From: a virus
Direction: 5' to 3' (one strand)
Virus record (IMG/VR): IMGVR_UViG_3300045988_136409
DNA length: 39,499 nt
A program made the translations under genes and the position numbers. The notes below the pieces were generated by a model, which searched no databases, was not told the DNA's origin, and saw nothing but the letters and a program-made list of their open reading frames with translations. Below, piece by piece: positions 3,350 to 36,972 of this stretch; within the stretch, counting starts at the first letter, position 1; each line of letters starts with the position of its first letter.

Positions 3350-3363
3350 TTGCACCGGTGCAA
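3350..3363 (-). promoter_or_regulatory. copy 1 of the 14-bp palindrome TTGCACCGGTGCAA (exact)
   Basis: On the minus strand it reads AAATTGCACCGGTGCAACAGAAAGGA and then the SIR2 ATG. It lies between the zinc-ribbon gene and the SIR2 gene. Confidence 0.8.
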
Positions 3364-3388
3364 TTTTTTAAAATGAAGATCATAAATA

Positions 3389-3673
3389 TTATAAGCCGTA
3401 TATTGTAGCACCAAAGATTTTACCACAGACAGGGCAAGAACGTTGATATAGTATATCGGGTAACTTTGGATAATTTTTATTCTTCCCATAAAGAGAAAAC
3501 ACCTGTTGATTATATTGTTTACAGGCAGTACAATTTCGATTTGCAGTAATAAGCACAGTATCAATATTCCACTCATTAATTTTAGGAATAATGCGTTTCA
3601 ACGAGACGTTTTCGATATCCGAGGGTAACATAGTCGAAGAACGGATACTGTTAAAGATTTTAGTGAATCCCAT
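3389..3673 (-). CDS. small zinc-ribbon protein resembling the conserved core of the phage MuF/SPP1-gp7 domain
   Basis: 94 aa with AAAGGGGAAA RBS and two Cys pairs, NCTACKQYNQQVFSL ... LYQRSCPVCG. By eye these parallel NPCPKCLPFVGKIL ... LYHPRCK in this phage's own MuF protein (22620-24260). Confidence 0.6.
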   Translation of the reverse strand: MGFTKIFNSIRSSTMLPSDIENVSLKRIIPKINEWNIDTVLITANRNCTACKQYNQQVFSLYGKNKNYPKLPDILYQRSCPVCGKIFGATIYGL

Positions 3674-3700
3674 ATAAATTTCCCCTTTTCATATTAGTAT

Positions 3701-4162
3701 TTATATCAGCTCCAACACGGAAACCGGGTCGAAGTAGATCACGTAATTATCATATTGCACACACAGACCGTACTTGCTCCGATAGCACTGCAGGGCTTCC
3801 TGCAGAAACTCCTCTGTGACACCCAGGTAATCAGCCATCTCATAAGAGGTAGTATAGTGTGCTTTGTGGCAGGAGATGATGCCGTGTAGTCCAATCAGTT
3901 TGTTATAACTCCAGAGTCTTGCCCGGAGCTCCTGCTTGCGGTTGGAATCAGAGGACTGATTGATAATGTCTCCGATGGTTGTGTGGTAATGCCCAAGCTC
4001 TTCGGCAAGCACGCAGGCCCTCTGTGTGGATCTCCGCACGGTCCGATTGATACCGATCACATCATTACGGATCAGTCCATCGGCCCGGGACTGGAATGGA
4101 GCATCTTCTATTACATATACATTTTCATCGGCAGCTTCCTGCAGTAAGTTCTCATAGGTCAA
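3701..4162 (-). CDS. ImmA/IrrE-like (DUF955) metallopeptidase-family protein, putative anti-repressor protease
   Basis: It has the motif VLAEELGHYHTT (HExxH-like, with the first His replaced by Glu). It sits immediately downstream of the XRE repressor gene, as in ImmR/ImmA pairs. TTG start. Confidence 0.65.
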   Translation of the reverse strand: MTYENLLQEAADENVYVIEDAPFQSRADGLIRNDVIGINRTVRRSTQRACVLAEELGHYHTTIGDIINQSSDSNRKQELRARLWSYNKLIGLHGIISCHKAHYTTSYEMADYLGVTEEFLQEALQCYRSKYGLCVQYDNYVIYFDPVSVLELI

Positions 4163-4176
4163 ATTGCATCATCCTT

Positions 4177-4707
4177 TTATTTTTCAGGTCTTTTCAGAAG
4201 TTTCATATCGGTCTGCATCTTTTCCTGTTCCTCAGGATCCGAAGCGTGATCATTATGAGCGGCACTAAGCCAGGCAGTATCATTTGGAATAGATATTCTG
4301 TTGGAAGGTACCTTAGCCAAATCGGCAGGCCATGTTTGGATACCATCCATGAAATTCCCCCTAAAGTGATCAATACTAGCGGAACAACGGTCAGATTCTT
4401 CGGCAAGTACAAAATCGACCATCTTTTTACCATGCTCATCGAGAGCACGGTATTTTTTTATATGGTCATATTCTGCCAGGGTAACATCATTTTGTTTCGC
4501 TTTTATTTTAACAGCATCTTGGAACAAGTAGTTTGCATCCACATTTAATGTTTCCATTAATTTATATATAATCTGTTCTTTCGGATGGCTGGTTTCCTTT
4601 TCGTAGTTGGTAATAGCAGAACCCGTTACGCCAATTAAGGCACCGAGTTCAGTTTGGGTTAGTCCCATTCGTTCTCTTGCTTCTTTTATTCTATATCCAA
4701 TACCCAT
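4177..4707 (-). CDS. XRE-family HTH repressor (CI/ImmR-like)
   Basis: N-terminal IKEARERMGLTQTELGALIGVTGSAITNYEKE is a helix-turn-helix. Start at MGIGYRIK (ATG 4707) after AAAGAGGTG. It is divergent from the Cro-like gene. Confidence 0.85.
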   Translation of the reverse strand: MGIGYRIKEARERMGLTQTELGALIGVTGSAITNYEKETSHPKEQIIYKLMETLNVDANYLFQDAVKIKAKQNDVTLAEYDHIKKYRALDEHGKKMVDFVLAEESDRCSASIDHFRGNFMDGIQTWPADLAKVPSNRISIPNDTAWLSAAHNDHASDPEEQEKMQTDMKLLKRPEK

Positions 4708-4731
4708 ACACGCACCTCTTTCTTTGTTACT

Positions 4732-4760
4732 AATATAACTCAAAAATCTTCAAATGTAAA
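4732..4760 (-). promoter_or_regulatory. candidate lysogenic promoter for the immR-immA-Zn ribbon-SIR2 operon
   Basis: On the minus strand: TTTACA (4760-4755), 17 nt, TATATT (4737-4732). Confidence 0.45.
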
Positions 4761-4792
4761 TATAAAAAACTCAAGATTTTTTAGAAAATGTA

Positions 4793-4821
4793 TTGACAAC
4801 TAAAGAATCATTAGTTATGAT
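4793..4821 (+). promoter_or_regulatory. early (lytic) promoter for the Cro-like operon
   Basis: TTGACA (4793-4798), 17 nt, TATGAT (4816-4821). Confidence 0.65.
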
Positions 4822-4845
4822 GTAGTTGAACTAAAGAAACTTTAG
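4798..4845. promoter_or_regulatory. two related inverted-repeat operators (O1 4798-4816, O2 4831-4845)
   Basis: O1 is AACTAAagaatcaTTAGTT and lies between the -35 and -10 of the early promoter. O2 is CTAAAGaaaCTTTAG. Both share ACTAAAGAA. Confidence 0.55.
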
Positions 4846-4860
4846 GAAAGGAGAACAAAA

Positions 4861-5067
4861 TTGAATTCTATTGTAGCACCTAACGTAAAAAGAATAATTA
4901 AGCAGAAATGTTTAAAGCAATCTGCGGTAGCTACCAGAGCCGGATATACTCCGAATCAGTTCTGCTCCATGATGAAAGGCCGAAAGATTATCAAAGATAT
5001 AGACATTATGAATATTGCGATAGCTTTGGGTGTAGATGCCAATGAACTATTTAAGAAGGAGGAATAA
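4861..5067 (+). CDS. Cro-like XRE-family HTH protein
   Basis: 68 aa with KQSAVATRAGYTPNQFCSMMKG HTH-like segment. TTG start after AAAGGAG. Divergent from the repressor gene. Confidence 0.75.
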   Translation: MNSIVAPNVKRIIKQKCLKQSAVATRAGYTPNQFCSMMKGRKIIKDIDIMNIAIALGVDANELFKKEE

Positions 5068-7700: not shown

Positions 7701-7809
7701 GCCGGCATTTGGCGATGCCGGCCAGCTCACAGAGCTACTTATATAGACAAGATAAGTATACCTCTGTAAGCCGGAAAAGTCAAGAAAAATGGGGCTTTTT
7801 GAAAGCCCC
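7701..7809. promoter_or_regulatory. cluster of three hairpins upstream of the Rep-like gene (candidate origin or nick-site region)
   Basis: GCCGGCATttggcgATGCCGGC (7701-7722), ACTTATatagacaagATAAGT (7737-7757) and GGGGCTTTttgAAAGCCCC (7791-7809). Confidence 0.4.
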
Positions 7810-7849
7810 TGCGCACTTGATAAAGATATTAAAGTTAGGATACAGAGAC

Positions 7850-8647
7850 ATGGTTAAGAGAAAGAAAATAAGGCTAAGACATGGGGATGTGCTGGACGTG
7901 GAAGAATACCACGATGGCAACTATGGATCCCCAGGGAAGAGCAGACAGAAGAAGGAGAAGCCGACCAAGGAACAGGTGCGGCTGATCAATCAGAGGAACA
8001 AGGTCAGGAGATGTAGATGGAGGCTGATCCAGTACTTTGACCAGGGAGATTTGTTTATCACATGGACATATGCAGTAGGGAATCGTCCGCCGGATATGGA
8101 AGGAGCGCTGAAGGACTTCCGGGCAGCAATCACCAAGATCCGGAAGATCTACCGGGCCAGGGGCGTACCGCTCTACTGGATTAGGAACATAGAAAAGGGA
8201 ACCAAGGGAGCCTGGCATATCCATCTTGTGATAAAGCAGACACCGAAGGGTGATGCGGCTGCTATCGTGACCAAGGCATGGACAAAGGGCGGCACCTACG
8301 TGGCAGAGATCTGTCACAGCAAGTTTACAGGAGACGACATGGAGCAGCTGGCGAATTACCTGACCAAGGACGAGCACACAGCGGAGACCAAGGCAGACGG
8401 CACACCGGGCAAACCAAGGATTGCGGAGTCATCATACAACACTAGCCGTAATATGCCGCTTCCGGAGCCACGGACGGACAAGCTGGTCCGATGGAAGCTG
8501 GAGGTCAAGCCGCCCAAGGGATATTACATAGCCCGGATCCATGAGGGCATCAATCCGGTGACAGGATTCCTGTACAGGAGTTACACATTGATCAGACTTA
8601 AAACGCAAGAGCGGAAGAAACCGCCGAACAGGGTAAGGAGGTGTTGA
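7850..8647 (+). CDS. HUH-endonuclease-type rolling-circle replication initiator-like protein
   Basis: AWHIHLVIK is an HUH-like motif (HxH followed by hydrophobics), and QLANYLTKDEH provides a downstream Tyr. The N-terminus is basic. Start set at MVKRKKIRL (ATG 7850). Confidence 0.55.
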   Translation: MVKRKKIRLRHGDVLDVEEYHDGNYGSPGKSRQKKEKPTKEQVRLINQRNKVRRCRWRLIQYFDQGDLFITWTYAVGNRPPDMEGALKDFRAAITKIRKIYRARGVPLYWIRNIEKGTKGAWHIHLVIKQTPKGDAAAIVTKAWTKGGTYVAEICHSKFTGDDMEQLANYLTKDEHTAETKADGTPGKPRIAESSYNTSRNMPLPEPRTDKLVRWKLEVKPPKGYYIARIHEGINPVTGFLYRSYTLIRLKTQERKKPPNRVRRC

Positions 8648-8651
8648 TAAA

Positions 8652-9140
8652 TTGGAAAATGAATTGAAAGTAGTGGATATCTTTATAGGCACGACTCTCC
8701 GGGGATCCGCAAAGGGCTCCGGCCGGGCAATGTACATCATGAGGACAAAGCGCAAGAACGGCAGTGACTATGAAGCTGCTCCTCAGATCGTAGAGTATGA
8801 CGATACCACGGAGAGCGAGTCAGTCCTGCGTGCCATCCGTGATGCCCTGCAGCGACTCCATTATGCCTGTACTGTAGTGATCCATACAGAGTGCAGCAAC
8901 GTGGCAGCAGCCATCGCACAGCACTGGCCGGAGAAGTGGCAGCACGATGGCTGGAAGAACGCTAAGGGCAATCCGGTAAAAAACGCAGTCTTGTGGGAAA
9001 TGCTCCTCCAGGACGTGGAAGAGGGCGGTCATATCCTGCTGGCAGAGAGCGAAAAACACGAATATGCGGAGTGGATGCGGTTTAATCTGCCGCTGAAACG
9101 GGCATTAAAAGACATATTTGCAGAAGTGCCGAAAAACTAA
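8652..9140 (+). CDS. RNase HI-like fold protein, possibly catalytically divergent
   Basis: WPEKWQHDGWKNAKGNPVKNAVLWEML matches the RNase HI W..W..GW....G.PVKN..LW block. The first catalytic Asp position reads IFIGTT. TTG start after AAGGAGG. Confidence 0.5.
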   Translation: MENELKVVDIFIGTTLRGSAKGSGRAMYIMRTKRKNGSDYEAAPQIVEYDDTTESESVLRAIRDALQRLHYACTVVIHTECSNVAAAIAQHWPEKWQHDGWKNAKGNPVKNAVLWEMLLQDVEEGGHILLAESEKHEYAEWMRFNLPLKRALKDIFAEVPKN

Positions 9141-9175
9141 CAGCATGAGTAGGTTACTTATGTTAGAGACCAATC

Positions 9176-9189
9176 CGGTGACGTCACCG
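9176..9189. promoter_or_regulatory. 14-bp perfect palindrome CGGTGACGTCACCG (possible operator)
   Basis: The sequence is self-complementary and lies in the intergenic region 9141-9314. Confidence 0.4.
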
Positions 9190-9282
9190 AAATGGTAGAA
9201 ATAGAACATTTTGTCAAGAAAAGGTAACAGCTTATTACAAAATGAAACGAAATCGCACCCGAATGATACGTTTTTTGAAAAA

Positions 9283-9296
9283 TTGCATCGGTGCAA
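9283..9296 (+). promoter_or_regulatory. copy 2 of the palindrome (TTGCAtCGGTGCAA, 1 mismatch)
   Basis: AAATTGCATCGGTGCAACCGGGGAAAGGAGAACAG followed by the ATG at 9315. Confidence 0.65.
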
Positions 9297-9314
9297 CCGG
9301 GGAAAGGAGAACAG

Positions 9315-9839
9315 ATGGAGAAGAAATTTGGAATATTTAATACCGTAGAGGAGTTAAACAGGGCAGCAGCCGCCCAGAAGGCAGAGGGGGACCTGGAAGC
9401 GCTGATCGGACTGGCCACAGAGAACGGACTGGAGAAAGAGGATGCCGAGGACTACATGGACAGCGACGATGCAGAGGATACTCTGTGCAATGAGACAATG
9501 GCAGCAATCGGTAAGCTGAAACTGGAAGCAGAGGACCTGAAGCTGGAGAGCCAGATGAAGGACTGGAAAGATTTTGTGGTCCAGATGCTGATGGAATATC
9601 CGACACAGCACATGGAAGAGGACGGTGCAGCTCTGGCCAATGCCGTATTTAATCCGGATAAAAAGCTTTTGGATGTGCTGGCCGCCGGACTGAAACAGGC
9701 ATCGAAAAACCGAGTAACGGTTGACCGGAGAATCACAAAGGCAGCAGGATTGCCGGAGAGCGCCGGACAGATTGGAATGTGCGGGCGTGATGACTTAAAA
9801 AAGATCATCTTGGATTATTACATGGGAGAGAAGAAATGA
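9315..9839 (+). CDS. hypothetical acidic protein
   Basis: Start at MEKKFGIF after AAAGGAG. 174 aa. Confidence 0.6.
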   Translation: MEKKFGIFNTVEELNRAAAAQKAEGDLEALIGLATENGLEKEDAEDYMDSDDAEDTLCNETMAAIGKLKLEAEDLKLESQMKDWKDFVVQMLMEYPTQHMEEDGAALANAVFNPDKKLLDVLAAGLKQASKNRVTVDRRITKAAGLPESAGQIGMCGRDDLKKIILDYYMGEKK

Positions 9840-10420
9840 TTGTATTTAAAGCAACAAACAATGACATGACCTGTAAACCAGGGCAGGGAATACAGTATCA
9901 GCTTGGAGTACCGGCGACGGCAGAACGGTCACAATGCGCATCAACAGGACTGCATGCCTGCGAGTATGTGCTGGACTGCACATGGTATTACGGACTGGGC
10001 GCCGGTAACAGGTATTTTAAAGCCAAAGCAGAAGGAGACATTGCAGAAGACGGACACGACACCCGCATCGCATGCACAAAACTGACTCTGCTGCGAGAAC
10101 TGACCAACCGTGACATTGCAAAAGAAGCCATGCTTTACATGATACATCATCCGCGCCGGGATAACTGGAAGACCTCGCGTCATATGGTAGAGGTAAAGGA
10201 GAACACAGCAGAGATCAGGATTCCGGATGGGATCGCCATTGCAAGAGGAATCCATCCAAAAGTAAGCGGCTGTGACGGAGCACACCTGGGGCTGATCCAG
10301 GAAGAGAAAGGAAAGATCACAGCGGCCAAGATATTTGATGTGGACGGAGTCTATATCCTGCCGGGCGTGTGGTACACCCTGGAGGATCTGGCAGAAGCGG
10401 AGAGGAGGCAGCAGGCATGA
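9836..10420 (+). CDS. conserved phage hypothetical protein
   Basis: ATGA start/stop overlap. The N-terminus MIVFKATNNDMTCKPGQGIQYQLG...GLHACEY is of a type recurrent in phages. Confidence 0.6.
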   Translation: MIVFKATNNDMTCKPGQGIQYQLGVPATAERSQCASTGLHACEYVLDCTWYYGLGAGNRYFKAKAEGDIAEDGHDTRIACTKLTLLRELTNRDIAKEAMLYMIHHPRRDNWKTSRHMVEVKENTAEIRIPDGIAIARGIHPKVSGCDGAHLGLIQEEKGKITAAKIFDVDGVYILPGVWYTLEDLAEAERRQQA

Positions 10421-12537
10421 AGTGGAGAGAAATACTGAAAGCACCGTTGATACCACGGACAAAAAGTAGGAAGAAAGAAAACCAGATCACTTTTCAGGCG
10501 ACGGACCAGTACCTGATCATGGACATCTGGAAAAATAAAGTAAATATCTGCCGGCACGCCGTAGACCGGAAAACATGGGAATACGGCACCTATTACGTCG
10601 GATCAGGCAAAAAAGAGCAGACCAATCTGACAAATTGCACGGAAGGATTTGGAGGATGTTACTGGGGATCGGAACCGTGTAAGGGAGATTGGCTGGAAGA
10701 AAAACAGGCAAAAGAACTGGAGAAGTTTGTCCCGATGCATGATTACAGTTGGATCAGCGATCCCTTGCGGAGGATATGTCGGATGGAAAAAGACTACAGT
10801 GCGGATAAGAGGGAACGTGCCAGAGACCGGAAAGAACAGAGAATCAGAGATCTCATGAATAAGTGTCCTAAGCCGGGACACAGGGTATATGACTGGATCA
10901 CTGAGAGACTGGTAGGAGATCTCCAGTATGCCTTTTATAACAAGCAGGACAAGACCTGTCATTGTACCGCATGCAACGGGGATTTTAAAGAAGAGGCAGC
11001 AGATGTCCCCGTAAAACATCGTAAACAGATCAAATGTCCTCTCTGTGGCCATGACCTGACGGTGGAAAAAACAAGGGGAAGAATCCAAACAATCGGATGG
11101 CTGACGATGATCCACGACGTGGACGAGAAACAGGGAGTAGAGAGACATTTTAAGGTAACGGTGGACTGGCACAGAACAGGAAAGAGAGATACAGAGCTGG
11201 ATGAACAGATCCGCCTGATGATGCTCCGAGGAGCAAAGGATTTTATGAAAATCTATTACTACTGTGATGTGTACTGGTGCGGATGGCACGACCACAATCC
11301 ACAGAGCAGACGCTGGCATACATCCTACCTGTATCCAGATACAGAAGGAATCAAAGCAGGGCTGAAAGCTACGGCATACGAAGCCTGGTCAGATGTCATG
11401 CCAATGCTGGCACAGATGGGGATTAAGGCATTTTATAACGGATTGCTTGTGGAAAGCAATAAGCAATTTACCGGTATCGCAGAGTATATGGCAAAGGGAC
11501 GCTTTTACCGTCTGCTGGATGAACTGTCACAGTGTATTACATACTGGGGCGGGTATTCGGGGAGAACAATCGAAGTAAACGGTGAATGCATGGAAGATAT
11601 TTTACTGATAGATGACAAGCAGCTAGTCAACCGCCTGCGGCAGGAAAACGGCGGAATGCAGATGCTGCGTTGGATGCAGTGGTCAGAACTGGAAGAAAGA
11701 AAGCTGTCGGCAGAATTTATCGCATGGACAGAAAAAAACAGAATTGATCCGGAGGACTATGATAAATCTCTCGCCGGAGAATACATGTCTCCGGAACAGC
11801 TGATGAATTACCTGAACCGGCAGAAAAAGGAATCGTATCCGGGAATGAAGATCCAGGATGTCTGGAATCAGTACGAGGACTATCTGTCCATGTCACGAAC
11901 GCTGGGAAAACACATGGATGATGCACTGGTACACCGCCCCAGGGAATTGAAGCGCCGGCACGATGAAGTGAATGAGGAAGTGGAACTGCACAGGGAAGAA
12001 TTTGAAAGGAAAAGAAATGCGGAAATGGCAAGGAAGCAGGCGGAGGAGATGAGGAACAAGTATCCGGGATATGAGGATATCCTCTCCGAGATCAGCGAGA
12101 AGTTTGAGTATCAGAATGACACCTATTGTATTGTGGTTCCCAGGGACTTTATGGAGATTACAGCAGAGGGCATGGCACTGCATCACTGCGTCGGTAACAC
12201 GGAGAGATATTTTGACCGGATTGTCAGCAGAGAGACCTATATCTGCTTCCTGCGGCAGCAGTCGTCCCCGGATAAGCCTTTTTACACGATAGAGGTGGAG
12301 CCGGGCGGTACCATCCGCCAGCACCGGGGAGCCTACGACGAGGAGCCGGGCATAGAAGAGATCAAGCCGTTCCTGAGGGAGTGGCAGAAGGTGATTCGCA
12401 AGCGCATGAGCAGGCAGGATCATGAATATGCCGCACAGAGTGAGATCCTGCGGCAGAAGAACATAGAAGAACTGAAGGCAAAGAATAATACTGTGGTCCT
12501 GAAAGGACTGGCAGAAGATCTGATGGAGGTAATCTGA
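10417..12537 (+). CDS. PcfJ-like domain protein with zinc-finger region
   Basis: C-terminal GMALHHCVGNTERYFDRIVSRETYICFLR...PFYTIEV is the PcfJ-like signature. CHCTACNG...CPLCGH provides two Cys pairs. ATGA overlap start at 10417. Confidence 0.65.
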   Translation: MKWREILKAPLIPRTKSRKKENQITFQATDQYLIMDIWKNKVNICRHAVDRKTWEYGTYYVGSGKKEQTNLTNCTEGFGGCYWGSEPCKGDWLEEKQAKELEKFVPMHDYSWISDPLRRICRMEKDYSADKRERARDRKEQRIRDLMNKCPKPGHRVYDWITERLVGDLQYAFYNKQDKTCHCTACNGDFKEEAADVPVKHRKQIKCPLCGHDLTVEKTRGRIQTIGWLTMIHDVDEKQGVERHFKVTVDWHRTGKRDTELDEQIRLMMLRGAKDFMKIYYYCDVYWCGWHDHNPQSRRWHTSYLYPDTEGIKAGLKATAYEAWSDVMPMLAQMGIKAFYNGLLVESNKQFTGIAEYMAKGRFYRLLDELSQCITYWGGYSGRTIEVNGECMEDILLIDDKQLVNRLRQENGGMQMLRWMQWSELEERKLSAEFIAWTEKNRIDPEDYDKSLAGEYMSPEQLMNYLNRQKKESYPGMKIQDVWNQYEDYLSMSRTLGKHMDDALVHRPRELKRRHDEVNEEVELHREEFERKRNAEMARKQAEEMRNKYPGYEDILSEISEKFEYQNDTYCIVVPRDFMEITAEGMALHHCVGNTERYFDRIVSRETYICFLRQQSSPDKPFYTIEVEPGGTIRQHRGAYDEEPGIEEIKPFLREWQKVIRKRMSRQDHEYAAQSEILRQKNIEELKAKNNTVVLKGLAEDLMEVI

Positions 12538-13880
12538 TGGAATTAATGGAATACACAAAAACTTATCAGGAATATAAACAGGAACTGGATGCAGTCCTCA
12601 CCCGGACAGCAGAGGACTTTGTACAGATCGGGTATCTGCTTAAGGTGGCAAGGGATACCAATGTACTGGAAGAGAGTGGGTATGCCAATGTGACGGACTT
12701 CGCAAAAGCGGAATATGGCATAGATAAGACTCAGGTGAGCCGATTTATCAACATCAATGACCGATTTTCAGAAAATGGATACTCGGATCACCTCATACCG
12801 AATTACCAAGGATTTGGATATGCAAAGCTGACACTGATGCTGCAGATTCCGGATGAGATCAACGAGGCTTTACCGCCTACACTGTCCAAAACAGAGATAC
12901 AGGCCATCAAAGATGAGGTGGATGCGGAAAACAAGATATCCGACATCGAGGTAGAAATCGAGCGGGCAGAGGCAGCAGCCGTAACGGACAAGCCCATGCT
13001 TCCACCGGAGGGATCACCGCTGAAAAGAAACCTATGGCAGCTGGGGAAAGAGCAGGAAGAACTCTTCCGGAAGCTGTGGAAGATATGTTTTTTACATACT
13101 GCATTTGGCAACAAAAATAATGCAGAGATCATGGATATCCTGATACCGCAGGGAGACGCAGTGTATACCGTCCGGATCCCGGGAGAGCGTAGGACGCAGA
13201 TCATTGTAAATTCTGATGGAGCTACCATCGTGAATTTGAAAACGCTGGAGCGGAGCAGATACACAGAGGATCAGATCTGTGATGCAGTCCGGTCTCTCAT
13301 AGATGGAGGCAGCAGTCCTGAGGAGCAGTACAAGAAACTCTATGGCGAGGACCTGACTCCGGAAGAACCGGAAATTGCACCGGTGCAACCGACCGACTCT
13401 CCGAAAGAAAAGAAGCCGGAAAAGCGTAAGGAATCCCGTGTGACCAAAGCAAACACAGAACCGAAGAAAAAGCCCAAGGAACCGGAAAAGAAGCCGGAGC
13501 AGATGACCATCCCGGGAGCCGCACCGGATCCGGCACCAGAAGAGCCGCAAACACAGGTAAATGACTCGCCTTCCCGGGAAACTGACGCGGATAATCAGAA
13601 TACCGACACCATGGATACGGAAGAGCAGGTACCGGGACAGACAGACCTTGAAAACGATTTTCCGCAATATTGTCCGGATGCAGACCAAAGGACTGCTTAT
13701 CTCCAGTCCATCCGTGGAGCAGTGGATAATCTGGTACGTTACGCAGAGATGGATCTGATCATCGCGGCGCGAGTGCAGGTGAAAGATATCTCCGAATACT
13801 TGGACAAGTTGGAAGAACTCATAAAGGAGGCGGATAGCAATGCCGAAGCGGTCGAAGCAGGCGAGAGCGCGGGAGTTTAA
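12537..13880 (+). CDS. hypothetical protein; N-terminal DUF3102-like region, C-terminal K/P/E-rich low-complexity region
   Basis: 447-aa ORF coupled to the upstream gene (TGATG). Low-complexity stretch PKEKKPEKRKESRVTKANTEPKKKPKEPEKKPE. Confidence 0.6.
   Translation: MELMEYTKTYQEYKQELDAVLTRTAEDFVQIGYLLKVARDTNVLEESGYANVTDFAKAEYGIDKTQVSRFININDRFSENGYSDHLIPNYQGFGYAKLTLMLQIPDEINEALPPTLSKTEIQAIKDEVDAENKISDIEVEIERAEAAAVTDKPMLPPEGSPLKRNLWQLGKEQEELFRKLWKICFLHTAFGNKNNAEIMDILIPQGDAVYTVRIPGERRTQIIVNSDGATIVNLKTLERSRYTEDQICDAVRSLIDGGSSPEEQYKKLYGEDLTPEEPEIAPVQPTDSPKEKKPEKRKESRVTKANTEPKKKPKEPEKKPEQMTIPGAAPDPAPEEPQTQVNDSPSRETDADNQNTDTMDTEEQVPGQTDLENDFPQYCPDADQRTAYLQSIRGAVDNLVRYAEMDLIIAARVQVKDISEYLDKLEELIKEADSNAEAVEAGESAGV
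13375..13388 (+). repeat. copy 3 of the palindrome (exact), intragenic
   Basis: ACCGGAAATTGCACCGGTGCAACCG. The 23-nt stretch ACCGGAAATTGCACCGGTGCAAC is identical to the copy at 18329-18351. It encodes EIAPVQP. Confidence 0.7.
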
Positions 13881-14190
13881 TGCTGCCTCCCGGCAGATTA
13901 TCAAAGAGCGGGATCTGTACCAGTGCATCTTTTGCCGCATGGAATATCATATGGAGGATGTCACCTGGTACGGACAGCAGCTGCAGAGCATCATGCACTA
14001 CATACCGCGCTCCCGGGGTGGTCTCGGGATCCCGCAGAATGGTGCATTGGGCTGCCAAAGTCACCATGAGATGCTGGATAACGGGAACAAGGGCAGACGG
14101 GAGGAAATGCTGCAGATGTTTAGGCAGTACCTGCAGGACCATTACCCAGACTGGTCGGAGGAAACCCTGACCTACAGCAAATGGAAATAA
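13840..14190 (+). CDS. HNH endonuclease
   Basis: CIFCRMEY...HYIPRSRGGLGIPQNGALGCQSHHEMLDNG gives an HNH-type Cys/His/Asn pattern. AAGGAGG RBS. Confidence 0.7.
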   Translation: MPKRSKQARAREFNAASRQIIKERDLYQCIFCRMEYHMEDVTWYGQQLQSIMHYIPRSRGGLGIPQNGALGCQSHHEMLDNGNKGRREEMLQMFRQYLQDHYPDWSEETLTYSKWK

Positions 14191-14213
14191 TGTATATACA
14201 AAACGGAGAAATT

Positions 14214-14381
14214 ATGAAAGCACGAACTGAACTTATCTCAGTACGACTGACACCAGAAGAAAAACGGAGAATGGAATATTGCGCTGAAATGATGGGAATT
14301 ACACAGACAGAACTTTTAGTGCGTGGAATCAATCGCTATTACGACAGCGTCAAAGAAACAATTAAGAAATTAAACCAATAA
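14214..14381 (+). CDS. ribbon-helix-helix (CopG/MobC-like) protein
   Basis: MKARTELISVRLTPEEKRRMEYCAEMMGITQTELLVRG is a typical RHH N-terminal beta-strand plus helices. Confidence 0.6.
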   Translation: MKARTELISVRLTPEEKRRMEYCAEMMGITQTELLVRGINRYYDSVKETIKKLNQ

Positions 14382-15263: not shown

Positions 15264-16175
15264 ATGGGAATGACGAGAAATCAACTTGCCTTAGTGCGAT
15301 ATGTGGCTGAAAACAATATACAAAAAGCCAAAGATGCAGCTCTTTGCTGCTGTGCGGAAGATACAACTCAGAAGAATCACTATGCAGTCACAAAATATCA
15401 AAGTCTATTACGATCTGGTGGAATGAATCTTATGGAGTTACCAGCAAATGTTTCCAGTTTTGCAACGATGGAAGATCTGACAAATACATACTTAGAAAGC
15501 AGATATTATCTGACCAATGAAGAAAAGGAATTATTCGAACTGATCAAGAACATGAATGATGTGAGTTTACAGCTTATGGAGAAACAGATCCCGTATCTGA
15601 ATGCAACATTGCTCTATGGCGAGAGCGGAGTCGGGAAGACGGCTTTTTCCAGGTATGTAGCATATAAACTGGAAATGCCGTATTTATATGTAAATTTTTC
15701 AAGAATGCTTGATAGTTATCTTGGTGGAACTGCAAAAAATCTTACGAATCTGTTTAATTTCATCAATCAGCATCAATGCGTTGTAATGTTGGATGAAATC
15801 GACAGCTTGGCAGTAAAGAGGGAATATGGTGGAGGAGGAGCGAGCGCAGAGGTTTCCAGAAGTACAACATGCTTGTTACAGCTGTTAGATGCAGTTACTA
15901 ACGACCATGTAATCATTGCCGCAACAAACCTCATAGATGATGTTGATACTGCAGTGAAGCGTAGATTTACAGAAAAGCATGAATTGCATCGTCTTTCATC
16001 AGAAGATAATGAACGGTTTATCAGACAGTACCTTGATGATGCAGGCTTTTCTTATGATTTGGATTCTATTAGAAAGTATGCTACAGAAAATCATTCACAG
16101 GCTGAAATTATGACACATGTAACAAGAAGTATTGCCAGTACGCTTATCAACAAGGATGAACTGGTAATGCTGTAA
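15264..16175 (+). CDS. AAA+ ATPase (classical AAA clade)
   Basis: Walker A LLYGESGVGKTAF, Walker B CVVMLDEIDSL, sensor IIAATNLIDDVD, and an RRF arginine-finger-like motif. Confidence 0.8.
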   Translation: MGMTRNQLALVRYVAENNIQKAKDAALCCCAEDTTQKNHYAVTKYQSLLRSGGMNLMELPANVSSFATMEDLTNTYLESRYYLTNEEKELFELIKNMNDVSLQLMEKQIPYLNATLLYGESGVGKTAFSRYVAYKLEMPYLYVNFSRMLDSYLGGTAKNLTNLFNFINQHQCVVMLDEIDSLAVKREYGGGGASAEVSRSTTCLLQLLDAVTNDHVIIAATNLIDDVDTAVKRRFTEKHELHRLSSEDNERFIRQYLDDAGFSYDLDSIRKYATENHSQAEIMTHVTRSIASTLINKDELVML

Positions 16176-24426: not shown

Positions 24427-24458
24427 ATACCACCAGCCATCGGACCGGTGGTATTTTT
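24427..24458 (+). terminator. candidate rho-independent terminator
   Basis: ATACCACC ... GGTGGTAT (8-bp stem, 12-nt loop) followed by TTTTT. Confidence 0.5.
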
Positions 24459-24474
24459 ATACATAAAAGTAAAA

Positions 24475-24488
24475 TTGCACCGGTGCAA
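24475..24488 (+). promoter_or_regulatory. copy 6 of the palindrome (exact)
   Basis: AAATTGCACCGGTGCAACTG lies between two terminator-like hairpins, upstream of the scaffold gene. Confidence 0.8.
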
Positions 24489-24509
24489 CTGAATATTGAA
24501 ATGGATGAG

Positions 24510-24534
24510 AACACCTGTAACAAGGTGTTTTTTA
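24510..24534 (+). terminator. rho-independent terminator-like hairpin
   Basis: AACACCT gtaaca AGGTGTT followed by TTTTT. Confidence 0.6.
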
Positions 24535-24638: not shown

Positions 24639-25262
24639 ATGTTTTACAAGACAGTAAGAAGATTCTTAAACCCTGATGGGAGCCAGGGCGGAGCACCGTC
24701 AGGAGAACAGACTGATCAGCAGTCACAGCAGAATGTAGCACCGCAGATTGACTATGGAAAAATCCAGCAGATGTTGGATGGAACGCTTGCGGCAAAAGAG
24801 GATACGGCATTGAAAGCCTATTTCAAGCAGCAGGGGCTTTCCCAACAGGAGGTGGAACAGGCTATAGCAACCTTCAAGGAACAGAAGGCGGCAAACCAGC
24901 CGAATGTGGAAGCATTGCAACAACAGGCTGCAACCGCAGCAGCTGAGGCAAGACAGGCACAGATCCAACAGGCAGCGACGATGGCAGCAGTCGGACTGGG
25001 AATCAGTGTAACATCCATTCCCTATGTACTGAAGATGGCAGATTTCAGCCAGGCAGTAGGACAGGATGGAAAGATCAGTAACGAGAAACTTACGGAAGCG
25101 CTGAATAAGGTGCTGGAGGATATTCCTGCATTAAAGCCGCAGGAGACAGATACTACCGGTTTCCTTCATGTGGGAACAGGAGGAGATCCTTCGCAGCATG
25201 CGCAGCAGGCGACTGTACAACAGACACAGACACCGACCAAAAGATGGAACCGGTGGAACTAA
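24639..25262 (+). CDS. scaffolding protein
   Basis: 207 aa, Q/A-rich and helical, located immediately before the capsid gene. AAAGGAG RBS. Confidence 0.7.
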   Translation: MFYKTVRRFLNPDGSQGGAPSGEQTDQQSQQNVAPQIDYGKIQQMLDGTLAAKEDTALKAYFKQQGLSQQEVEQAIATFKEQKAANQPNVEALQQQAATAAAEARQAQIQQAATMAAVGLGISVTSIPYVLKMADFSQAVGQDGKISNEKLTEALNKVLEDIPALKPQETDTTGFLHVGTGGDPSQHAQQATVQQTQTPTKRWNRWN

Positions 25263-34144: not shown

Positions 34145-35138
34145 ACCCACAGTATGGAAAAACAAACCGTCGGTGGATACTCCGCTGAATGAAACGAATC
34201 TGAATAAATTGAGTCAGGGTGTGAGCGAGATTGATAACCGAGTGATTACCTTGAATATGACCAAGTTTGAGAAAACGGATGCGCAGTCCTGCATCAAAAA
34301 GATCGAGTATGACAAGGCAACAGGTAAGTTTACCATCACAGCGGTCTCCGGCGCACAACAGGTTATTGATACTATGCTCGAAAAGCTGGCGGTCAATTTT
34401 GACTACGATCCCACTGCACAGCAGCTGATCATCACGCTGGATGACGGCAGTAAAAAATACGTGGATCTGTCAGCACTGATCACACAGTTTGAATTTGTGG
34501 ACTCCAATATCGTTTATTGGACGGTAGGAGATGATGGCAAAGTAAAGGCTGACATCAAAAACGGCAGCATTACGGCGGATAAACTGCAGCCTAATTACCT
34601 GGCAGACATCACTGTGCAGGCAGAAAACGCAAGCGCTTCTGCGACTGCAGCGGCAAAGTCAGCGACGGCGGCAGCGGGATCTGAGACGGAAGCAGCCCAG
34701 TCTGAGGAAAATGCCAGGGTATCTGCAGAGCAGGCAGGGATATCAGCTGATAATGCCAGTGCAAGTGCCACAGCGGCAGCAGGATCCGAAACGGCAGCAG
34801 CAAAGTCTGCGGAATCTGCGCAGACCACCAGCAAACACGCAGAGGATTTGGTGGAAGATGTTACACAAAAACTGGAGACCGGTCAATTTAACGGTCCTCA
34901 AGGCATTCAGGGTCCGAAAGGTGATAAGGGAGATAAAGGAGACAAGGGGGATAAAGGGGATCCTGGGGAGAAGGGTGATCGTGGAGACAGTGGGGTGACA
35001 GTGCCAATAAACGGTATGTTTACCCTGTCTGGGGACGCAGAGGGGAACCTGTGGGCGTACTACGCAGATGACACGACACCCCCACAGTTCGAAGTAGACG
35101 AAGAAGGAAACATATATTATTTAACACCAGATGCATAG
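34128..35138 (+). CDS. tail fibre protein with Ala-rich repeats and collagen-like G-X-Y tract
   Basis: GPQGIQGPKGDKGDKGDKGDKGDPGEKGDRGDSG (34893-34994), with duplicated ASASATAAA...GSETAAA segments. Confidence 0.75.
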   Translation: MQKAYEPTVWKNKPSVDTPLNETNLNKLSQGVSEIDNRVITLNMTKFEKTDAQSCIKKIEYDKATGKFTITAVSGAQQVIDTMLEKLAVNFDYDPTAQQLIITLDDGSKKYVDLSALITQFEFVDSNIVYWTVGDDGKVKADIKNGSITADKLQPNYLADITVQAENASASATAAAKSATAAAGSETEAAQSEENARVSAEQAGISADNASASATAAAGSETAAAKSAESAQTTSKHAEDLVEDVTQKLETGQFNGPQGIQGPKGDKGDKGDKGDKGDPGEKGDRGDSGVTVPINGMFTLSGDAEGNLWAYYADDTTPPQFEVDEEGNIYYLTPDA

Positions 35139-35149
35139 GAGGATAGATT

Positions 35150-36079
35150 ATGTCAAAAGTGTTGATCGGAAATTTTAAAGGACCACAGGGAGAACAGGGG
35201 ATTCCAGGTATTCAGGGAGAACAAGGGGAACGGGGGAATAGGGGATCCCGCTGGACCGAAGGGACCGCTATTACCGGGACAAGCACCACACCTACAGTAT
35301 TTAACGGCACAGGAATATCGGATTCACTCGCAGAAGATATGTATCTTAACACAGATACCGGAAATGCATATCGTTGCACGACTGGCGGAGAGGCTACGGT
35401 AGCAAAGTGGGTGTACGCCTGTAATCTTAAAGGCATCAAGGGTGATACAGGAGCTAAGGGAGATCCCGGAACTGCCGGCCCGAAGGGAGAAAAGGGAGAT
35501 ACAGGAGAACAGGGACCTAAAGGAGAAACACCTACTGTGGCTGACAACATGACCGTGGCTTTTACTGAGGCAGCCACCAGAGAGAATATTTCCACTGGTG
35601 AAAAAGTTTCTACTGTATTTGGAAAAATAAAGAAATTTTTTGCTGATCTCACTGCCCCGGCATTTGCGCAGATGATTACATCTAAGGAGGATCTGTTGGC
35701 TGCAAAGGTGACCGGATATGTGCCGGATGCCAAGGCGGTAGCAGATACATATACTGAGTTAAATGGCAATTTAACTTATTCAACGGAAGAAACAATATGC
35801 GGTAAATGGATTGATGGTAGAAAGATATATCGAGTTGTTAAGCAAGTCACATCAAATATTAATACTAATATTGTTGCATTATCGCTTCCTACCGCATCTC
35901 GTGTTATAGATATCAAAGGTACTATAGATACTAACGAAAACAGAACAATTCCCATTTATTGTACATGGGAAACTGGATTATCAATATATGCATACTACTA
36001 CCAATCTGAAAAAAATATCTATCTTAATAACAAGGTTGGAAGCGGTACGGCATATATAATAGTTGAGTATATTAAATAA
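35150..36079 (+). CDS. collagen-like tail fibre / receptor-binding protein (constant part 35150-35758 plus expressed C-terminal cassette A 35759-36079)
   Basis: Two G-X-Y tracts. The composition switches to AT-rich after ELNGNL. The crossover-like site TAAATGGCAA lies at 35760-35769, within the 18-bp dyad GTTAAATggcaATTTAAC. Confidence 0.8.
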   Translation: MSKVLIGNFKGPQGEQGIPGIQGEQGERGNRGSRWTEGTAITGTSTTPTVFNGTGISDSLAEDMYLNTDTGNAYRCTTGGEATVAKWVYACNLKGIKGDTGAKGDPGTAGPKGEKGDTGEQGPKGETPTVADNMTVAFTEAATRENISTGEKVSTVFGKIKKFFADLTAPAFAQMITSKEDLLAAKVTGYVPDAKAVADTYTELNGNLTYSTEETICGKWIDGRKIYRVVKQVTSNINTNIVALSLPTASRVIDIKGTIDTNENRTIPIYCTWETGLSIYAYYYQSEKNIYLNNKVGSGTAYIIVEYIK

Positions 36080-36412
36080 TTACTTTAATCCATATATCTT
36101 AATATCAGAAAAAGTCCAACCGGAAGATGCGCATGTTTGAATATATATAGATTCATTTACCACATATCCACCAATAGTATAATAATAATCTGATCCAGCA
36201 GCATTATTGTAATATCTTCTAAACCATATTTGTCCAACGACTTTTACAACAGACATATCAATTATAATGTCTTCAATGTGTCCTGCTGTAAATCTTATTA
36301 ATATTTTTTTATATGGAGTGAAATTAATATTATACCTCTGTTCTTTCTGCGACGTTATTGTTGTTAATAATTCAGATGATGACAAATCTAATTTGCCATT
36401 TAGCGTAGTAGA
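36080..36412 (-). other. silent tail-fibre C-terminal cassette B (no RBS or ATG), inverted and tail-to-tail with cassette A
   Basis: The minus-strand frame opens 3 codons before LNGKLDLSSSELL... TAAATGGCAA on the minus strand (plus 36393-36402) is in the same codon phase as site A. About 106 aa, AT-rich. Confidence 0.6.
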
Positions 36413-36456
36413 TCAGATGGCGGGCGCAGCCACAAGAGCGCCAGAAAGGAGCCCAC

Positions 36457-36972
36457 ATGGGTTACATAAAATTTAAAAAGAAAAAGACCGTTACAAAGGT
36501 CATTGTGTCAGAAGAGAGTCCTCATGTGATCCGGATCACCGGAGACAATCTCACAGTAAATACTGACGGCTTCCGCCTCTACCTGGATGAGGGATGCAAA
36601 TACCAGCTGGACAACGGCGAGTATGAGGCATACACAACTTTATTCAGGGAGGGTAACGGCTGGTATGAGCTGTCCGATGACGGATCCGTATATATTGAGC
36701 CGGTTGTACCGGTGCAACCGGAGCCCACAGAAGAGGAGCTTGCAGAGCAGGAACGGCAGCAGCAGATCAGTCAGTTGACAGCGCAGATTGATGACCTTAA
36801 GACCCGGATTGCTGCCAGCGACTATAAAGTCATCAAAACATACGAGTATACTCTTCTCGGTGAGCAGACTGAGTATGACATGGAGACTGTCCATGCAGAG
36901 CGGCAGGCTCTCCGGGATCAGATCAACACCCTGGAGACCCAGCTTGCAGATCTGACCACAACTGCAGAGTAG
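36457..36972 (+). CDS. hypothetical phage protein (XkdW-like position), C-terminal coiled-coil
   Basis: 171 aa with an AAAGGAG RBS. Confidence 0.6.
   Translation: MGYIKFKKKKTVTKVIVSEESPHVIRITGDNLTVNTDGFRLYLDEGCKYQLDNGEYEAYTTLFREGNGWYELSDDGSVYIEPVVPVQPEPTEEELAEQERQQQISQLTAQIDDLKTRIAASDYKVIKTYEYTLLGEQTEYDMETVHAERQALRDQINTLETQLADLTTTAE
36704..36717 (+). repeat. copy 7 of the palindrome (TTGtACCGGTGCAA, 1 mismatch), intragenic
   Basis: CCGGTTGTACCGGTGCAACCGG is a 22-bp near-palindrome. It encodes PVVPVQP. Confidence 0.6.

Follow-up and report, generated by a model that had tools for sequence, protein, structure and literature searches.

The stretch of viral DNA analysed here, which we call the window (39,499 nucleotides, IMG/VR virus record IMGVR_UViG_3300045988_136409), combines a conserved early module with a short palindrome that recurs from one end of the sequence to the other. 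The module consists of the following genes:

7709-8647, plus strand: HUH Rep (REP_ORF2-G2P), assigned by Pfam
8652-9140, plus strand: RNase H-like protein, assigned by Pfam
9315-9839, plus strand: PcfK-like protein, a weak Pfam match, seen in relatives
9836-10420, plus strand: DUF7666 protein, assigned by Pfam
10369-12537, plus strand: PcfJ-like protein, assigned by Pfam
12537-13880, plus strand: orphan protein of 447 amino acids (phrog_15077), the putative binder of the palindrome

The palindrome lies at seven places:

3349-3364, minus strand: copy 1, ATTGCACCGGTGCAAC on the minus strand, 25 nt past the stop codon of ORF 3389-3673 (minus strand) and 14 nt 5' of the SIR2 ATG
9282-9297, plus strand: copy 2, ATTGCATCGGTGCAAC, 18 nt 5' of the ATG of the PcfK-like gene
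13374-13389, plus strand: copy 3, ATTGCACCGGTGCAAC, within ORF 12537-13880, coding for IAPVQ at the start of a K/E/P-rich linker
18337-18352, plus strand: copy 4, ATTGCACCGGTGCAAC, between the second tyrosine recombinase gene (17321-18322) and the RinA-like gene (ATG at 18371)
18897-18912, plus strand: copy 5, the full palindrome GTTGCACCGGTGCAAC, after the terminator 18859-18886 and 21 nt 5' of the terS ATG (18933)
24474-24489, plus strand: copy 6, ATTGCACCGGTGCAAC, after the bidirectional terminator 24424-24457 and 150 nt 5' of the scaffold gene 24639-25262
36703-36718, plus strand: copy 7, GTTGTACCGGTGCAAC, within ORF 36457-36972 (coding for VVPVQP), where it links the N-terminal part to the C-terminal coiled coil

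The palindrome copies are non-random and invariant. A sequence-only reading of this DNA had described a 14-bp palindrome, TTGCACCGGTGCAA, and our search of the window confirms it, with exact copies at 3350, 13375, 18338, 18898 and 24475, one-mismatch copies at 9283 (TTGCATCGGTGCAA) and 36704 (TTGTACCGGTGCAA), both mismatches being C-to-T, and no further copy in the window at up to two mismatches. The copies lie about 5 kb apart. Dinucleotide shuffles put the chance expectation at 0.12 core matches against the seven seen; the maximum among 100 shuffles was two, and none of the 100 reached seven. The 14-bp palindrome is the core of a complete 16-bp unit, GTTGCACCGGTGCAAC, whose first position is A in five of the window copies. 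Across about 1.9 Mb of related loci we found 214 distinct exact 16-mers, and the commonest variant there (G1 to A) alters the outermost base only.

The copies occupy two kinds of place, gene junctions, in the order stop codon, motif, SD, and inter-domain linkers. Four had been said to sit just upstream of starts (SIR2, the 9315 gene, the rinA-like gene and terS), and they do, the end of the core lying 14, 18, 19 and 21 nt, respectively, from the start codon. The two intragenic copies reported in PVQP segments, 13375 and 36704, are likewise in frame as (I/V)(A/V)PVQP in the linkers of ORFs 12537-13880 and 36457-36972. As for the terminators proposed beside copies 5 and 6, our scan recovered those at 18859-18886 and 24424-24457, while a further hairpin, near 24510-24534, can be made out by eye but is unlisted by the scan. 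Read along the local gene, the core is followed by C in all seven window copies and preceded by AAA in five, and the minus-strand copy at 3350, upstream of the SIR2 gene, obeys the same rule, so that the oriented extension noted earlier is borne out. On the sense strand, A stands at -2 in about 90% and at -3 in about 70% of copies, against T at +2 in only 1-17%, and for the A variant at -1 the ratio to its mirror image is about 50 to 3. The orientation signal is real but small: it resides in the flanks alone (A at -2/-3, the A variant at -1), which track the sense strand, and the core itself is symmetric. Such asymmetry is not predicted by a purely symmetric duplex site, and it counts against the cognate-duplex-site reading that we favour below.

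The motif is scattered over the genomes of thousands of gut Lachnospiraceae phages, at three to seven copies per genome in phage and prophage DNA. It is phage-specific rather than a host-wide repeat: among the matches listed, all those in Lachnospiraceae genomes lie in phage-like DNA, and matches outside the family are chance singletons in unrelated phyla. In more than 100 distinct intergenic contexts it stands right after a stop codon and no more than about 10 nt from an SD; another 93 distinct contexts are deep inside ORFs, and still other copies occupy 3' untranslated positions or the space between terminators. The position of copy 2 is the most frequently conserved intergenic one (60 instances, 24 distinct contexts), copy 4 is syntenic in relatives, and the position of copy 7 is occupied in homologues. 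The position of copy 3 is kept in homologues with 35-50% amino-acid identity, its 16-mer is conserved far above the flanking codons, and among 149 representatives taken at 50% identity, 78% have [VI]APVQ. At the copy-1 site, relatives join at least five different left flanks to at least four different right flanks; a terminator adjoins there and the SIR2 gene is absent. Roseburia phage Jekyll has one exact copy, in an endolysin linker, without the early module, which speaks against the reading favoured below.

Elsewhere, what travels with the motif is the early module, comprising the HUH Rep, RNase H, PcfK-like, DUF7666, PcfJ and 447-aa proteins; the window genes that most frequently adjoin the motif in other loci are those at 7709-13880. 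The reverse test gives the same picture, in that all 80 loci selected by the 447-aa protein alone carry the motif in syntenic places (251 copies at up to two mismatches), and in all 80 one copy lies within the gene of the 447-aa protein itself. A copy is always present in or beside the PcfK-like gene as well. At the own-gene copy the flanking codons are free and, where the motif is mutated, the resulting amino-acid changes are tolerated, which argues that selection acts there on the nucleotides. The Rep, by comparison, is poorly conserved (27-35% identity) against an invariant motif.

The 447-aa protein opens with a helical N-terminal domain, which is followed by a middle domain, a K/E/P linker of basic character and a helix at the C terminus. 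Its N-terminal domain includes a stretch, EFAKAEYGIDKTQVSRFININ, whose sequence pattern and predicted helices alone suggest an HTH. The AF2 model of this domain is helical (pTM 0.75), and its fold relatives are uncharacterised viral proteins only, among them DUF3102 and an inovirus protein; searches of Pfam, PDB sequences and the PDB Foldseek library returned no known DNA-binding family or fold for the protein. A sister clade (B) pairs with a different 16-bp palindrome, TGTGCGAC(G/A)TCGCACA, in 18 of 18 loci. Motif B, too, lies inside the gene of its protein in 18 of 18, but in another linker than in clade A, and it again marks the PcfK-like gene and adjoins SDs. The two classes do not mix, with 232 motif A and no motif B in clade A, and 35 motif B and no motif A in clade B. 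What covaries is motif class with phage lineage or module; the 447-aa protein is not singled out among the module proteins, which weakens the case for it as the binder. Both motifs are perfectly symmetric through the centre, which fits a dimer on duplex DNA, where such symmetry is required, whereas a hairpin does not require it. Some clade-B proteins carry, as a fusion, the alpha-CTD domain of RNA polymerase, which binds DNA. In pCBU3, a small inovirus-like replicon, a relative of the N-terminal domain is encoded next to the rep gene, and two perfect 16-bp palindromes, one of them the canonical parS, lie about 190 bp upstream of this relative.

Overall, the earlier view is supported in its general form: these look like genome-dispersed sites of a sequence-specific phage protein, conserved and enriched in related phages. 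Its specific proposals (stoperators, RinA-like or Xer-like sites, an RNA hairpin) are not supported. On balance we lean towards a reading in which the palindromes are cognate duplex-DNA sites of the 447-aa protein family, in the manner of ParB-parS, KorB-OB or lambda O-ori, and the 447-aa early protein, always found together with the motif, is most likely its DNA-binding partner. A dimer of the 12537-13880 protein would recognise GTTGCACCGGTGCAAC through its HTH-like N-terminal domain. The phage would maintain three to seven sites: one within the binder's own gene, one at the PcfK-like gene, at the head of an operon segment extending through PcfJ to the gene of the binder, while the remaining ones would mark the lysogeny junction, the early/late junction (RinA-like gene, terS) and the structural region. 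The sites may be confined to places that tolerate 16 fixed base pairs, namely short spacers between stop codon and SD and flexible inter-domain linkers, and such tolerance-limited placement would explain the apparent rule that copies lie upstream of an RBS. Bound protein could act as a roadblock to read-through transcription at gene junctions, or insulate against it, and regulate its own gene as well; equally, it could nucleate a complex serving the adjacent rolling-circle replication module. The motif and its pairing with a protein appear to be undescribed.

The proposed mode of working is like that of ParB-parS and KorB-OB (chromosomal Spo0J/parS, RK2 KorB with its 12 OB sites, N15 with its dispersed SopB sites), which share a short perfect palindrome of 13-16 bp that is scattered in several copies over the replicon, within genes and between them. 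They also share a site in the binder's gene or next to it, and a cognate palindrome that differs between family members. Unlike those systems, the binder here would come from an orphan family, the replicon is an integrating prophage rather than a plasmid, the window has no ParA partner, and the N-terminal (CTPase) domain and HTH of ParB were looked for and not detected. The initiators lambda O (ori iterons in the O linker) and SPP1 G38P (oriL in gene 38, oriR elsewhere) offer a second likeness, with a site in the linker-coding part of the initiator's own gene and more copies elsewhere, an N-terminal DNA-binding domain (putative here), a linker and a C-terminal domain, clade-wise covariation of specificity and a gene in the replication module. 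Here, however, each place has a single palindrome rather than tandem iterons with an AT-rich region, the five to seven copies extend into lysogeny and structural regions, and the module already has an HUH Rep.

An RNA-level element is unlikely, although the more than 100 intergenic contexts between stop codon and SD speak for it, as do flanks that track the sense strand, the minus-strand SIR2 copy included. Here the hairpin GUUGCA-CCGG-UGCAAC beside the SD, bound by a protein or cut by an RNase, would determine how the downstream cistron is translated or processed, or how stable it is, and the two C-to-T mismatches in the window would preserve G-U pairing. But the hairpin is weak (-6.7 kcal/mol), and the A-variant tested has a different minimum-energy fold; the most frequent change, G1 to A, disrupts the closing pair while the wobble-compatible C16 to U is rare; and the remaining variants show neither wobble bias nor compensation. 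The supposed loop is self-complementary in both motif classes, the copies deep in ORFs, between terminators or in 3' untranslated positions count against it, no Rfam family matches, and RNA models that rely on structure alone fit poorly. The start-associated sequences (SAS) in cluster K mycobacteriophages and the RNase III sites between T7 cistrons are also conserved elements directly 5' of some translation starts, but the former are asymmetric and include the SD, and the latter are long structured RNAs, whereas this symmetric 16-mer also occurs in genes and after last genes.

Improbable, too, is a single-stranded DNA signal of the rolling-circle module, a hairpin on the displaced sense strand at which priming would start or which the HUH Rep would recognise. 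The motif co-travels with an inovirus-type HUH Rep and RNase H, the asymmetry is strand-specific, the copies are spaced at about 5 kb, and the pCBU3 relative adjoins a rep gene. Known single-strand origins and Rep hairpins (ssoA/ssoU, IS608/REP) make a 6-bp stem look very short, however, and such a signal has no need of a palindromic centre. The Rep diverges while the motif does not, multiple nick sites would fragment the genome, and the asymmetry of the SIR2 copy tracks the local gene rather than a genome-wide direction. REP elements with their RAYT (HUH) transposases are similarly short palindromes after stop codons with an HUH enzyme encoded nearby, but REPs are longer and imperfect, have a GTAG guide and number hundreds in host chromosomes, unlike this phage-restricted motif, and the Rep here belongs to the G2P type rather than to the Y1 transposases.

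We give a similarly low probability to a recombination site or hot spot at which a site-specific nuclease or recombinase, for instance the Xer-like one or the Zn-ribbon/HNH-like protein whose gene follows 12537-13880, would cause genes and domains to be swapped as modules. Copies do lie at gene and domain junctions, the Jekyll endolysin linker included; the lysogeny-junction copy joins many alternative flanks, with the SIR2 moron exactly beside it; and homology confined to one flank is about 3-4 fold enriched there (17 excess combinations against 2-8 at control offsets, which are not motif-free gene junctions). Phage gene junctions are mosaic break points anyway, the sites are stably syntenic in relatives, and many motif-bearing loci lack the recombinase; the Xer-like enzyme, once suggested as a partner, is present in a minority only. 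A fully symmetric 16-bp site is, moreover, too short and directionless for tyrosine recombinases.

Less plausible still is the proposal that the immunity repressor (4177-4743) uses these as stoperator-type sites or that they serve the RinA-like activator (18371-18799). Like the stoperators of cluster A mycobacteriophages, the copies are many, dispersed, mostly in short intergenic spacers and co-oriented with transcription, and two of them flank the RinA-like gene and precede terS. Stoperators, however, are asymmetric 13-mers identical to the operator of the immunity repressor, whereas the palindrome is linked to an early replication-module protein and missing from the CI/Cro switch (4743-4861), which has unrelated operators, two copies of AACTAAAGAAnCnTTAGTT; this difference argues against a stoperator of the immunity repressor. 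Homologues of the repressor, Cro and the RinA-like protein occur in few motif-bearing loci, the same invariant motif is present in phages with unrelated late regulators, and the copies are too near start codons for promoter activator sites.

Equally remote is a site of a conserved Lachnospiraceae host protein, ParB- or Noc-like for example, exploited by phages: the motif is invariant over phages of several host genera and resembles parS, a true copy of which is present in pCBU3, but none of the matches listed from Lachnospiraceae is in non-phage host DNA, and the two motif classes segregate by phage clade rather than by host. The half-site GTTGCAC resembles the parS half-site, GTTTCAC, and the motif has two extra central bases. 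Finally, the occurrence of TGCAAC in the integrase arm repeats (ATGCAACATGA), already suspected of being a coincidence, does look coincidental.

We searched the window with the 14-bp palindrome TTGCACCGGTGCAA and recovered the five exact copies that the sequence-only reading had listed (3350, 13375, 18338, 18898 and 24475) as well as its two one-mismatch copies (9283 and 36704), with no others in the window at up to two mismatches. Dinucleotide-preserving shuffles give 0.12 expected matches, in keeping with the earlier estimate of far less than one copy by chance. Five of the seven copies are intergenic and two intragenic, and they occupy the lysogeny, early and structural regions. Their flanks are indeed co-oriented with the local gene: C follows all seven and AAA precedes five, and the minus-strand copy at 3350 obeys the same rule, with the ATG of the SIR2-domain gene 14 nt further on. 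The other start-proximal copies lie 18-21 nt 5' of the genes at 9315, 18371 and 18933 (terS). The terminators said to precede two copies were found by a terminator scan at 18859-18886 and 24424-24457, and the two linker copies encode, in frame, (I/V)(A/V)PVQP in the ORFs 12537-13880 and 36457-36972.

These sites are set in a complete siphovirus-like prophage bounded by a 26-bp direct repeat at both ends, with genes for an integrase, a SIR2 moron, an M78 peptidase, an HTH repressor, a cro-like protein, the early module, a second tyrosine recombinase, a RinA-like regulator, terS, terL, portal, capsid, tail and lysis. The features on which the following discussion draws are:

1-26 and 39474-39499: terminal direct repeat AAGCGCGAGACGGGGATCGAACCCGC, 26 bp
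139-178 and 39416-39434: integrase arm-type repeats ATGCAACATGA, four near the left end and two near the right
4793-4821: sigma-70-like promoter of the CI/Cro switch, TTGACA-17-TATGAT
7709-13880: early module, encoding an HUH Rep of inovirus G2P type (REP_ORF2-G2P), an RNase H-like protein, a PcfK-like protein (9315-9839), a DUF7666 protein, a PcfJ-like protein and an orphan 447-aa protein (12537-13880, phrog_15077)
13840-14190, plus strand: ORF for a Cys/His-rich protein, overlapping the 3' end of 12537-13880
14181-14381, plus strand: small ribbon-helix-helix (RHH) protein with a NikA-like (relaxosome accessory) Pfam match, E = 1.9e-5, just below the curated cut-off
17321-18322, plus strand: second, Xer-like tyrosine recombinase, between the early genes and the late regulator

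The terminal repeat resembles a tRNA-gene 3' end; ARAGORN found no complete tRNA in the window. The product of 13840-14190 has the look of a Zn-ribbon or HNH/NinG-type protein, for which Pfam gives a weak Zn-ribbon match and nothing else, and in many divergent lineages the gene after that of the 447-aa protein encodes a Cys/His protein of this or an analogous type. The bidirectional terminator at 24424-24457 is long and A/T-flanked (AAAATACCACC...GGTGGTATTTT), includes ACCGGTGG, which is similar to the centre of the motif, and is found again, directly 5' of the motif, in many phages that otherwise differ. The SIR2-domain gene (1716-3383, minus strand) is a moron placed exactly between the post-integrase terminator and the first motif copy; in relatives (L245-L299) the terminator directly adjoins the motif, or other inserts occupy the same point.

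Conservation and enrichment of the motif in related phages, the check proposed earlier, are readily apparent. A scan of IMG/VR with a 15-mer query gave at least 120 stretches, and the matches listed carry mostly the full 16-bp palindrome GTTGCACCGGTGCAAC, hereafter motif A, often in two to three copies per stretch. In a genome scan with the 16-mer, which covered one genome per species and whose figures hold among the matches listed, the hits are overwhelmingly in Lachnospiraceae (Acetatifactor, Roseburia, Lachnospira, Oribacterium and others), while those in unrelated phyla are singletons, as chance predicts. All but one of the Lachnospiraceae loci listed have proteins in common with the viral loci, and the 23 listed loci that lack such similarity are nearly all from other phyla. 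Motif A is thus a phage feature, and we reject a host-wide repeat, since the listed matches that fall outside phage-like DNA are single chance hits in other phyla. Across about 1.9 Mb of motif-selected loci there are 214 distinct exact 16-mers and 44 more with A at position 1, with only a handful of inner changes. It is therefore the motif sequence itself, and not just its structure, that is conserved.

The settings in which these copies occur are varied. Intergenic copies recur in more than 100 distinct contexts, before many unrelated downstream genes, in the order stop codon (often overlapping positions -5 to -1), (A)AG, motif, SD within about 10 nt, and start codon. Intragenic copies lie in flexible linkers, mostly in the frame GTT GCA CCG GTG CAA, or VAPVQ (93 distinct contexts, against 15 in the CTGA frame), and some copies stand 3' of an operon's last gene, beside the terminator. 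Because intergenic, linker and post-operon copies all occur, what the sites share is tolerance of 16 fixed base pairs rather than proximity to a ribosome-binding site, and the seeming rule that the motif sits upstream of an RBS can come simply from where a fixed 16-mer fits into a tightly packed genome. The cultured Roseburia phage Jekyll (LR596902.1), which has no early module, carries one exact copy (2100-2115), in the CTGA frame, in the endolysin linker between the catalytic and cell-wall-binding domains. The same endolysin context is seen in two IMG/VR loci (L012 and L019), which suggests that this copy travelled with a shuffled lysin module.

In the motif-selected loci, the window genes found most commonly beside the motif are those of the early module, and about 50 homologues of the 447-aa protein, at 35-50% identity, have the exact motif at the same place in their genes, where the 285 conserved N-terminal residues end. 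The association holds in the reverse direction too, with loci fetched by peptide patterns of the 447-aa protein instead of by the motif. Relatives of the protein are encoded on at least 532 IMG/VR contigs; the motif is present in all 80 of the loci kept (251 copies in 1.22 Mb), and each of these 80 loci, which represent the branch of the protein family that we call clade A, has an in-gene copy. The syntenic places in the 80 loci are the lysogeny junction, the position upstream of the PcfK-like gene, the in-gene site and a pair around the late regulator; there is one copy per place, with no tandem repeats, both here and in the window. In the protein-selected loci the in-gene 16-mer is conserved far above the neighbouring codons, and where it is mutated the residue changes are varied (A to E, P to S, V to A or E), which places the selection on the nucleotides. 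The orphan family as a whole comprises about 2,200 clusters at 50% identity; [VI]APVQ is found in 78% of 149 representatives at 50% identity, at median residue 274, and no bridge to a known family appeared among the representatives listed, all of them strong members.

The 447-aa protein has no match in Pfam or in PDB sequence searches. An AF2 model of the full-length protein is poor (pLDDT 57), and one of the N-terminal domain (residues 1-117) is good (pTM 0.75). No PDB fold matches the domain model, and its fold relatives are uncharacterised viral proteins only, including DUF3102 proteins and one inovirus protein. An HTH-like stretch coincides with two predicted helices (H52-60 and H64-77), and the domain is accompanied by a basic linker and a long C-terminal helix; the in-gene motif lies in the linker-coding part, where pLDDT is below 50. 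A basic peptide, (R)KESKV(T/V)KAK (window 13420-13450), is kept 10-15 codons past the in-gene motif even in very divergent homologues, in what is otherwise a free low-complexity linker. The site is not an internal start, since GTA replaces GTG in some homologues.

A second specificity class came to light in the Clostridium phage phiCs5676-1, which has the module and lacks motif A. Its homologue (CS5676_0056) differs from clade A in the two most conserved N-terminal segments (GYYLKKTAKDELY against clade A GYLLKVARDTDIL, and SRPTAIRFMEIN against DKTQVSRFININ), and another near-palindrome occurs twice in this phage, in the homologue's gene and in the PcfK-like gene, with a third, weaker one abutting the SD of the endolysin gene (16359, 31532 and 34067). 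As a query for related loci in IMG/VR the phiCs5676-1 protein found nothing; 184 relatives of it were fetched and 18 loci of this sister clade, clade B, were examined. All 18 have motif B, TGTGCGAC(G/A)TCGCACA, within the homologue's gene. In most the site falls at codons 141-144, in a linker that differs from that of clade A and encodes LCD(V/I)AQ. Most clade-B loci have another copy in the PcfK-like gene and a further one downstream, the latter in some cases in the setting stop-AAAG-motif-SD. The contigs (L322-L338) are mostly from Clostridium scindens-like and other gut Clostridia, and one of them (L338) has a perfect variant, TGTGCGGCGCCGCACA, within its PcfK-like gene. Motif A and motif B number 232 and 0 copies in clade A and 0 and 35 in clade B: in the loci examined the two classes are mutually exclusive and never mixed. 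No third class was seen among the subgroups of the sister clade that were examined, all of which use motif B. Some clade-B proteins are fused to the DNA-binding domain of the RNA polymerase alpha subunit (alpha-CTD, PF03118), and the in-gene motif B copies of these fusion proteins are hundreds of bp apart. Two such fusion genes (L334 6288-8192 and L335 2461-4365) have two to three motif B copies each, and their modules are missing the PcfJ gene.

On balance, we lean towards the view that the motif copies are dispersed binding sites of a dimeric protein encoded in the module, with the 12537-13880 family as the candidate binder. Recognition of duplex DNA by such a dimer is indicated by a dyad that is perfect across its centre in both classes, by the invariance and phage restriction of the sequence, by the covariation of motif class with protein clade, and by the retention of one in-gene copy at a different position in each clade. 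The 12537-13880 family is the best candidate because the motif was tested with it in both directions and because of its HTH-like stretch, basic linker and C-terminal helix. At the same time, the covariation is with the whole module lineage, and so is not enough on its own to point to the 447-aa protein in particular. Of the sequence-only interpretation, the idea of putative dispersed protein-binding sites stands, and the binders proposed and the stoperator analogy do not.

A role in recombination has some support. In a gapped comparison (an ungapped one is confounded by indels), one-flank homology shows a 3-4 fold enrichment at the motif over controls at offsets of 100-400 nt from it, which are not motif-free gene junctions. 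The copy at the lysogeny junction is found with many different flanks, and the SIR2 moron lies immediately next to it. Phage gene junctions, however, are mosaic break points anyway. A single-stranded DNA signal for the rolling-circle Rep is possible and disfavoured, as the stem is short and Rep is poorly conserved while the motif is invariant. REP/RAYT elements have many host-chromosome copies and a Y1 HUH transposase, whereas motif A is, among the matches listed, restricted to phage DNA and this Rep is of the REP_ORF2-G2P type.

The reading of the motif as a hairpin acting at the RNA level, also raised earlier, is weakened. All that keeps it alive is the asymmetry of the flanks: with sites oriented independently, by purine skew, the sense strand has A at -3 in 67-76%, A at -2 in about 90%, G or A at -1 in 80/20 proportion, C at +1 in 96% and T at +2 in just 1-17%, and for the -1 A variant against its mirror image the ratio is roughly 50 to 3. 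This asymmetry is real but small. Against a hairpin, the predicted fold is weak (-6.7 kcal/mol), the commonest variant breaks the closing pair, wobble or compensatory bias is absent, many copies have no start codon close by, and no Rfam family matches the motif. Likewise, boxB/nut-like or RNase III elements show compensatory or wobble changes and a free loop, whereas motif A is invariant, its centre included.

Other binders proposed for the motif fare poorly. The RinA-like protein has a homologue in only 7 of the 120 motif-bearing viral loci among the matches listed, other late regulators follow the same motif in other phages, and a RinA/ArpU/Ltr site is confined to the late promoter and occurs with its activator, neither of which is true of motif A. 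The Xer-like recombinase is present in some motif-bearing lineages only (a recombinase occupies the equivalent place in several clade-A and clade-B phages, not all), and the RHH protein in close relatives only; as each of the three occurs in a subset of motif-bearing lineages, all are unlikely binders. Stoperators of an immunity repressor are rejected: the switch region (4743-4861) has AACTAAAGAAnCnTTAGTT twice and no motif; the two copies of this operator-like palindrome, in fuller form AACTAAAGAA(T/A)C(A/T)TTAG(TT), at 4793-4845, overlap the good sigma-70-like promoter. The stoperators of cluster A mycobacteriophages, typically in 20-30 copies where the window has seven, are asymmetric, oriented sites with the sequence of the repressor's operator, whereas motif A has a perfect palindromic 16-bp core, differs from the switch operators and follows the sense strand in its flanking bases alone. 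A promoter role is dismissed for want of sigma-70-like hexamers of usable spacing at the sites and for the wrong geometry to start codons.

For the dispersed binding sites that we favour, established points of comparison are Spo0J, RK2 KorB, N15 SopB, lambda O and SPP1 G38P. Like ParB-parS and KorB-OB, the motif is a short perfect palindrome in several dispersed copies, some intragenic, with a copy in or beside the gene of the likely binder and a site that changes with the protein clade. Unlike those systems, the 447-aa protein has no detectable ParB/Srx N-terminal domain or ParB HTH by Pfam, PDB sequence or fold, no ParA-type partner ATPase was matched among the window proteins scanned, and conservation of the AAA protein at 15264-16175 does not follow the motif. 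Membership of the ParB family, without ParB domain, ParA partner or fold match, is thus unsupported. Lambda O and SPP1 G38P likewise have their site within the linker-coding part of the binder's own gene, but tandem iterons and an AT-rich unwinding region are not seen here.

Autoregulation, together with a roadblock to read-through into the late genes or insulation from it, would fit copies at the operon head, in the gene and flanking the late regulator; alternatively, the sites might serve as an origin or organiser, in line with a motif linked in-gene to its candidate binder and with that gene's place in the replication module. More tentatively, and with slightly less than even confidence, we suggest that temperate phages of Lachnospiraceae have an undescribed site-specific system, consisting of the orphan family and its cognate 16-bp palindromes in at least two specificity classes, with one site in the binder's gene and others scattered as 'self' marks. 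Such a system would be analogous to ParB/KorB or to origin-binding initiators on a different fold, and would serve to organise the phage chromosome, or to insulate it, in rolling-circle replication and at the early-to-late switch. A pairing of motif and protein with two specificity classes appears to be undescribed: neither 16-mer was found in the papers searched, and neither the motif nor the partner family has an annotation or paper in the annotations and literature searched. Prophages of Lachnospiraceae from human and animal guts widely carry both (at least 532 IMG/VR contigs, thousands of protein clusters). If the proposal is true, both the orphan family and the conserved Rep/RNase H/PcfK/PcfJ module would gain a function, and the pairing may explain how read-through into late genes is controlled or replication organised. 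The two 16-mers also provide a simple sequence marker by which these prophages can be recognised and classified.

A distant relative of the N-terminal domain adjoins the rep gene of pCBU3 (NZ_AP019719.1), a 6-kb 'plasmid' of Clostridium butyricum that is an inovirus-like replicon whose genes include a Zot-like one and an RCR rep. Two perfect 16-bp palindromes (3689-3704 and 3712-3727), the canonical parS TGTTTCACGTGAAACA and a second one, GTAACGACGTCGTTAC, lie about 190 bp upstream of this relative.
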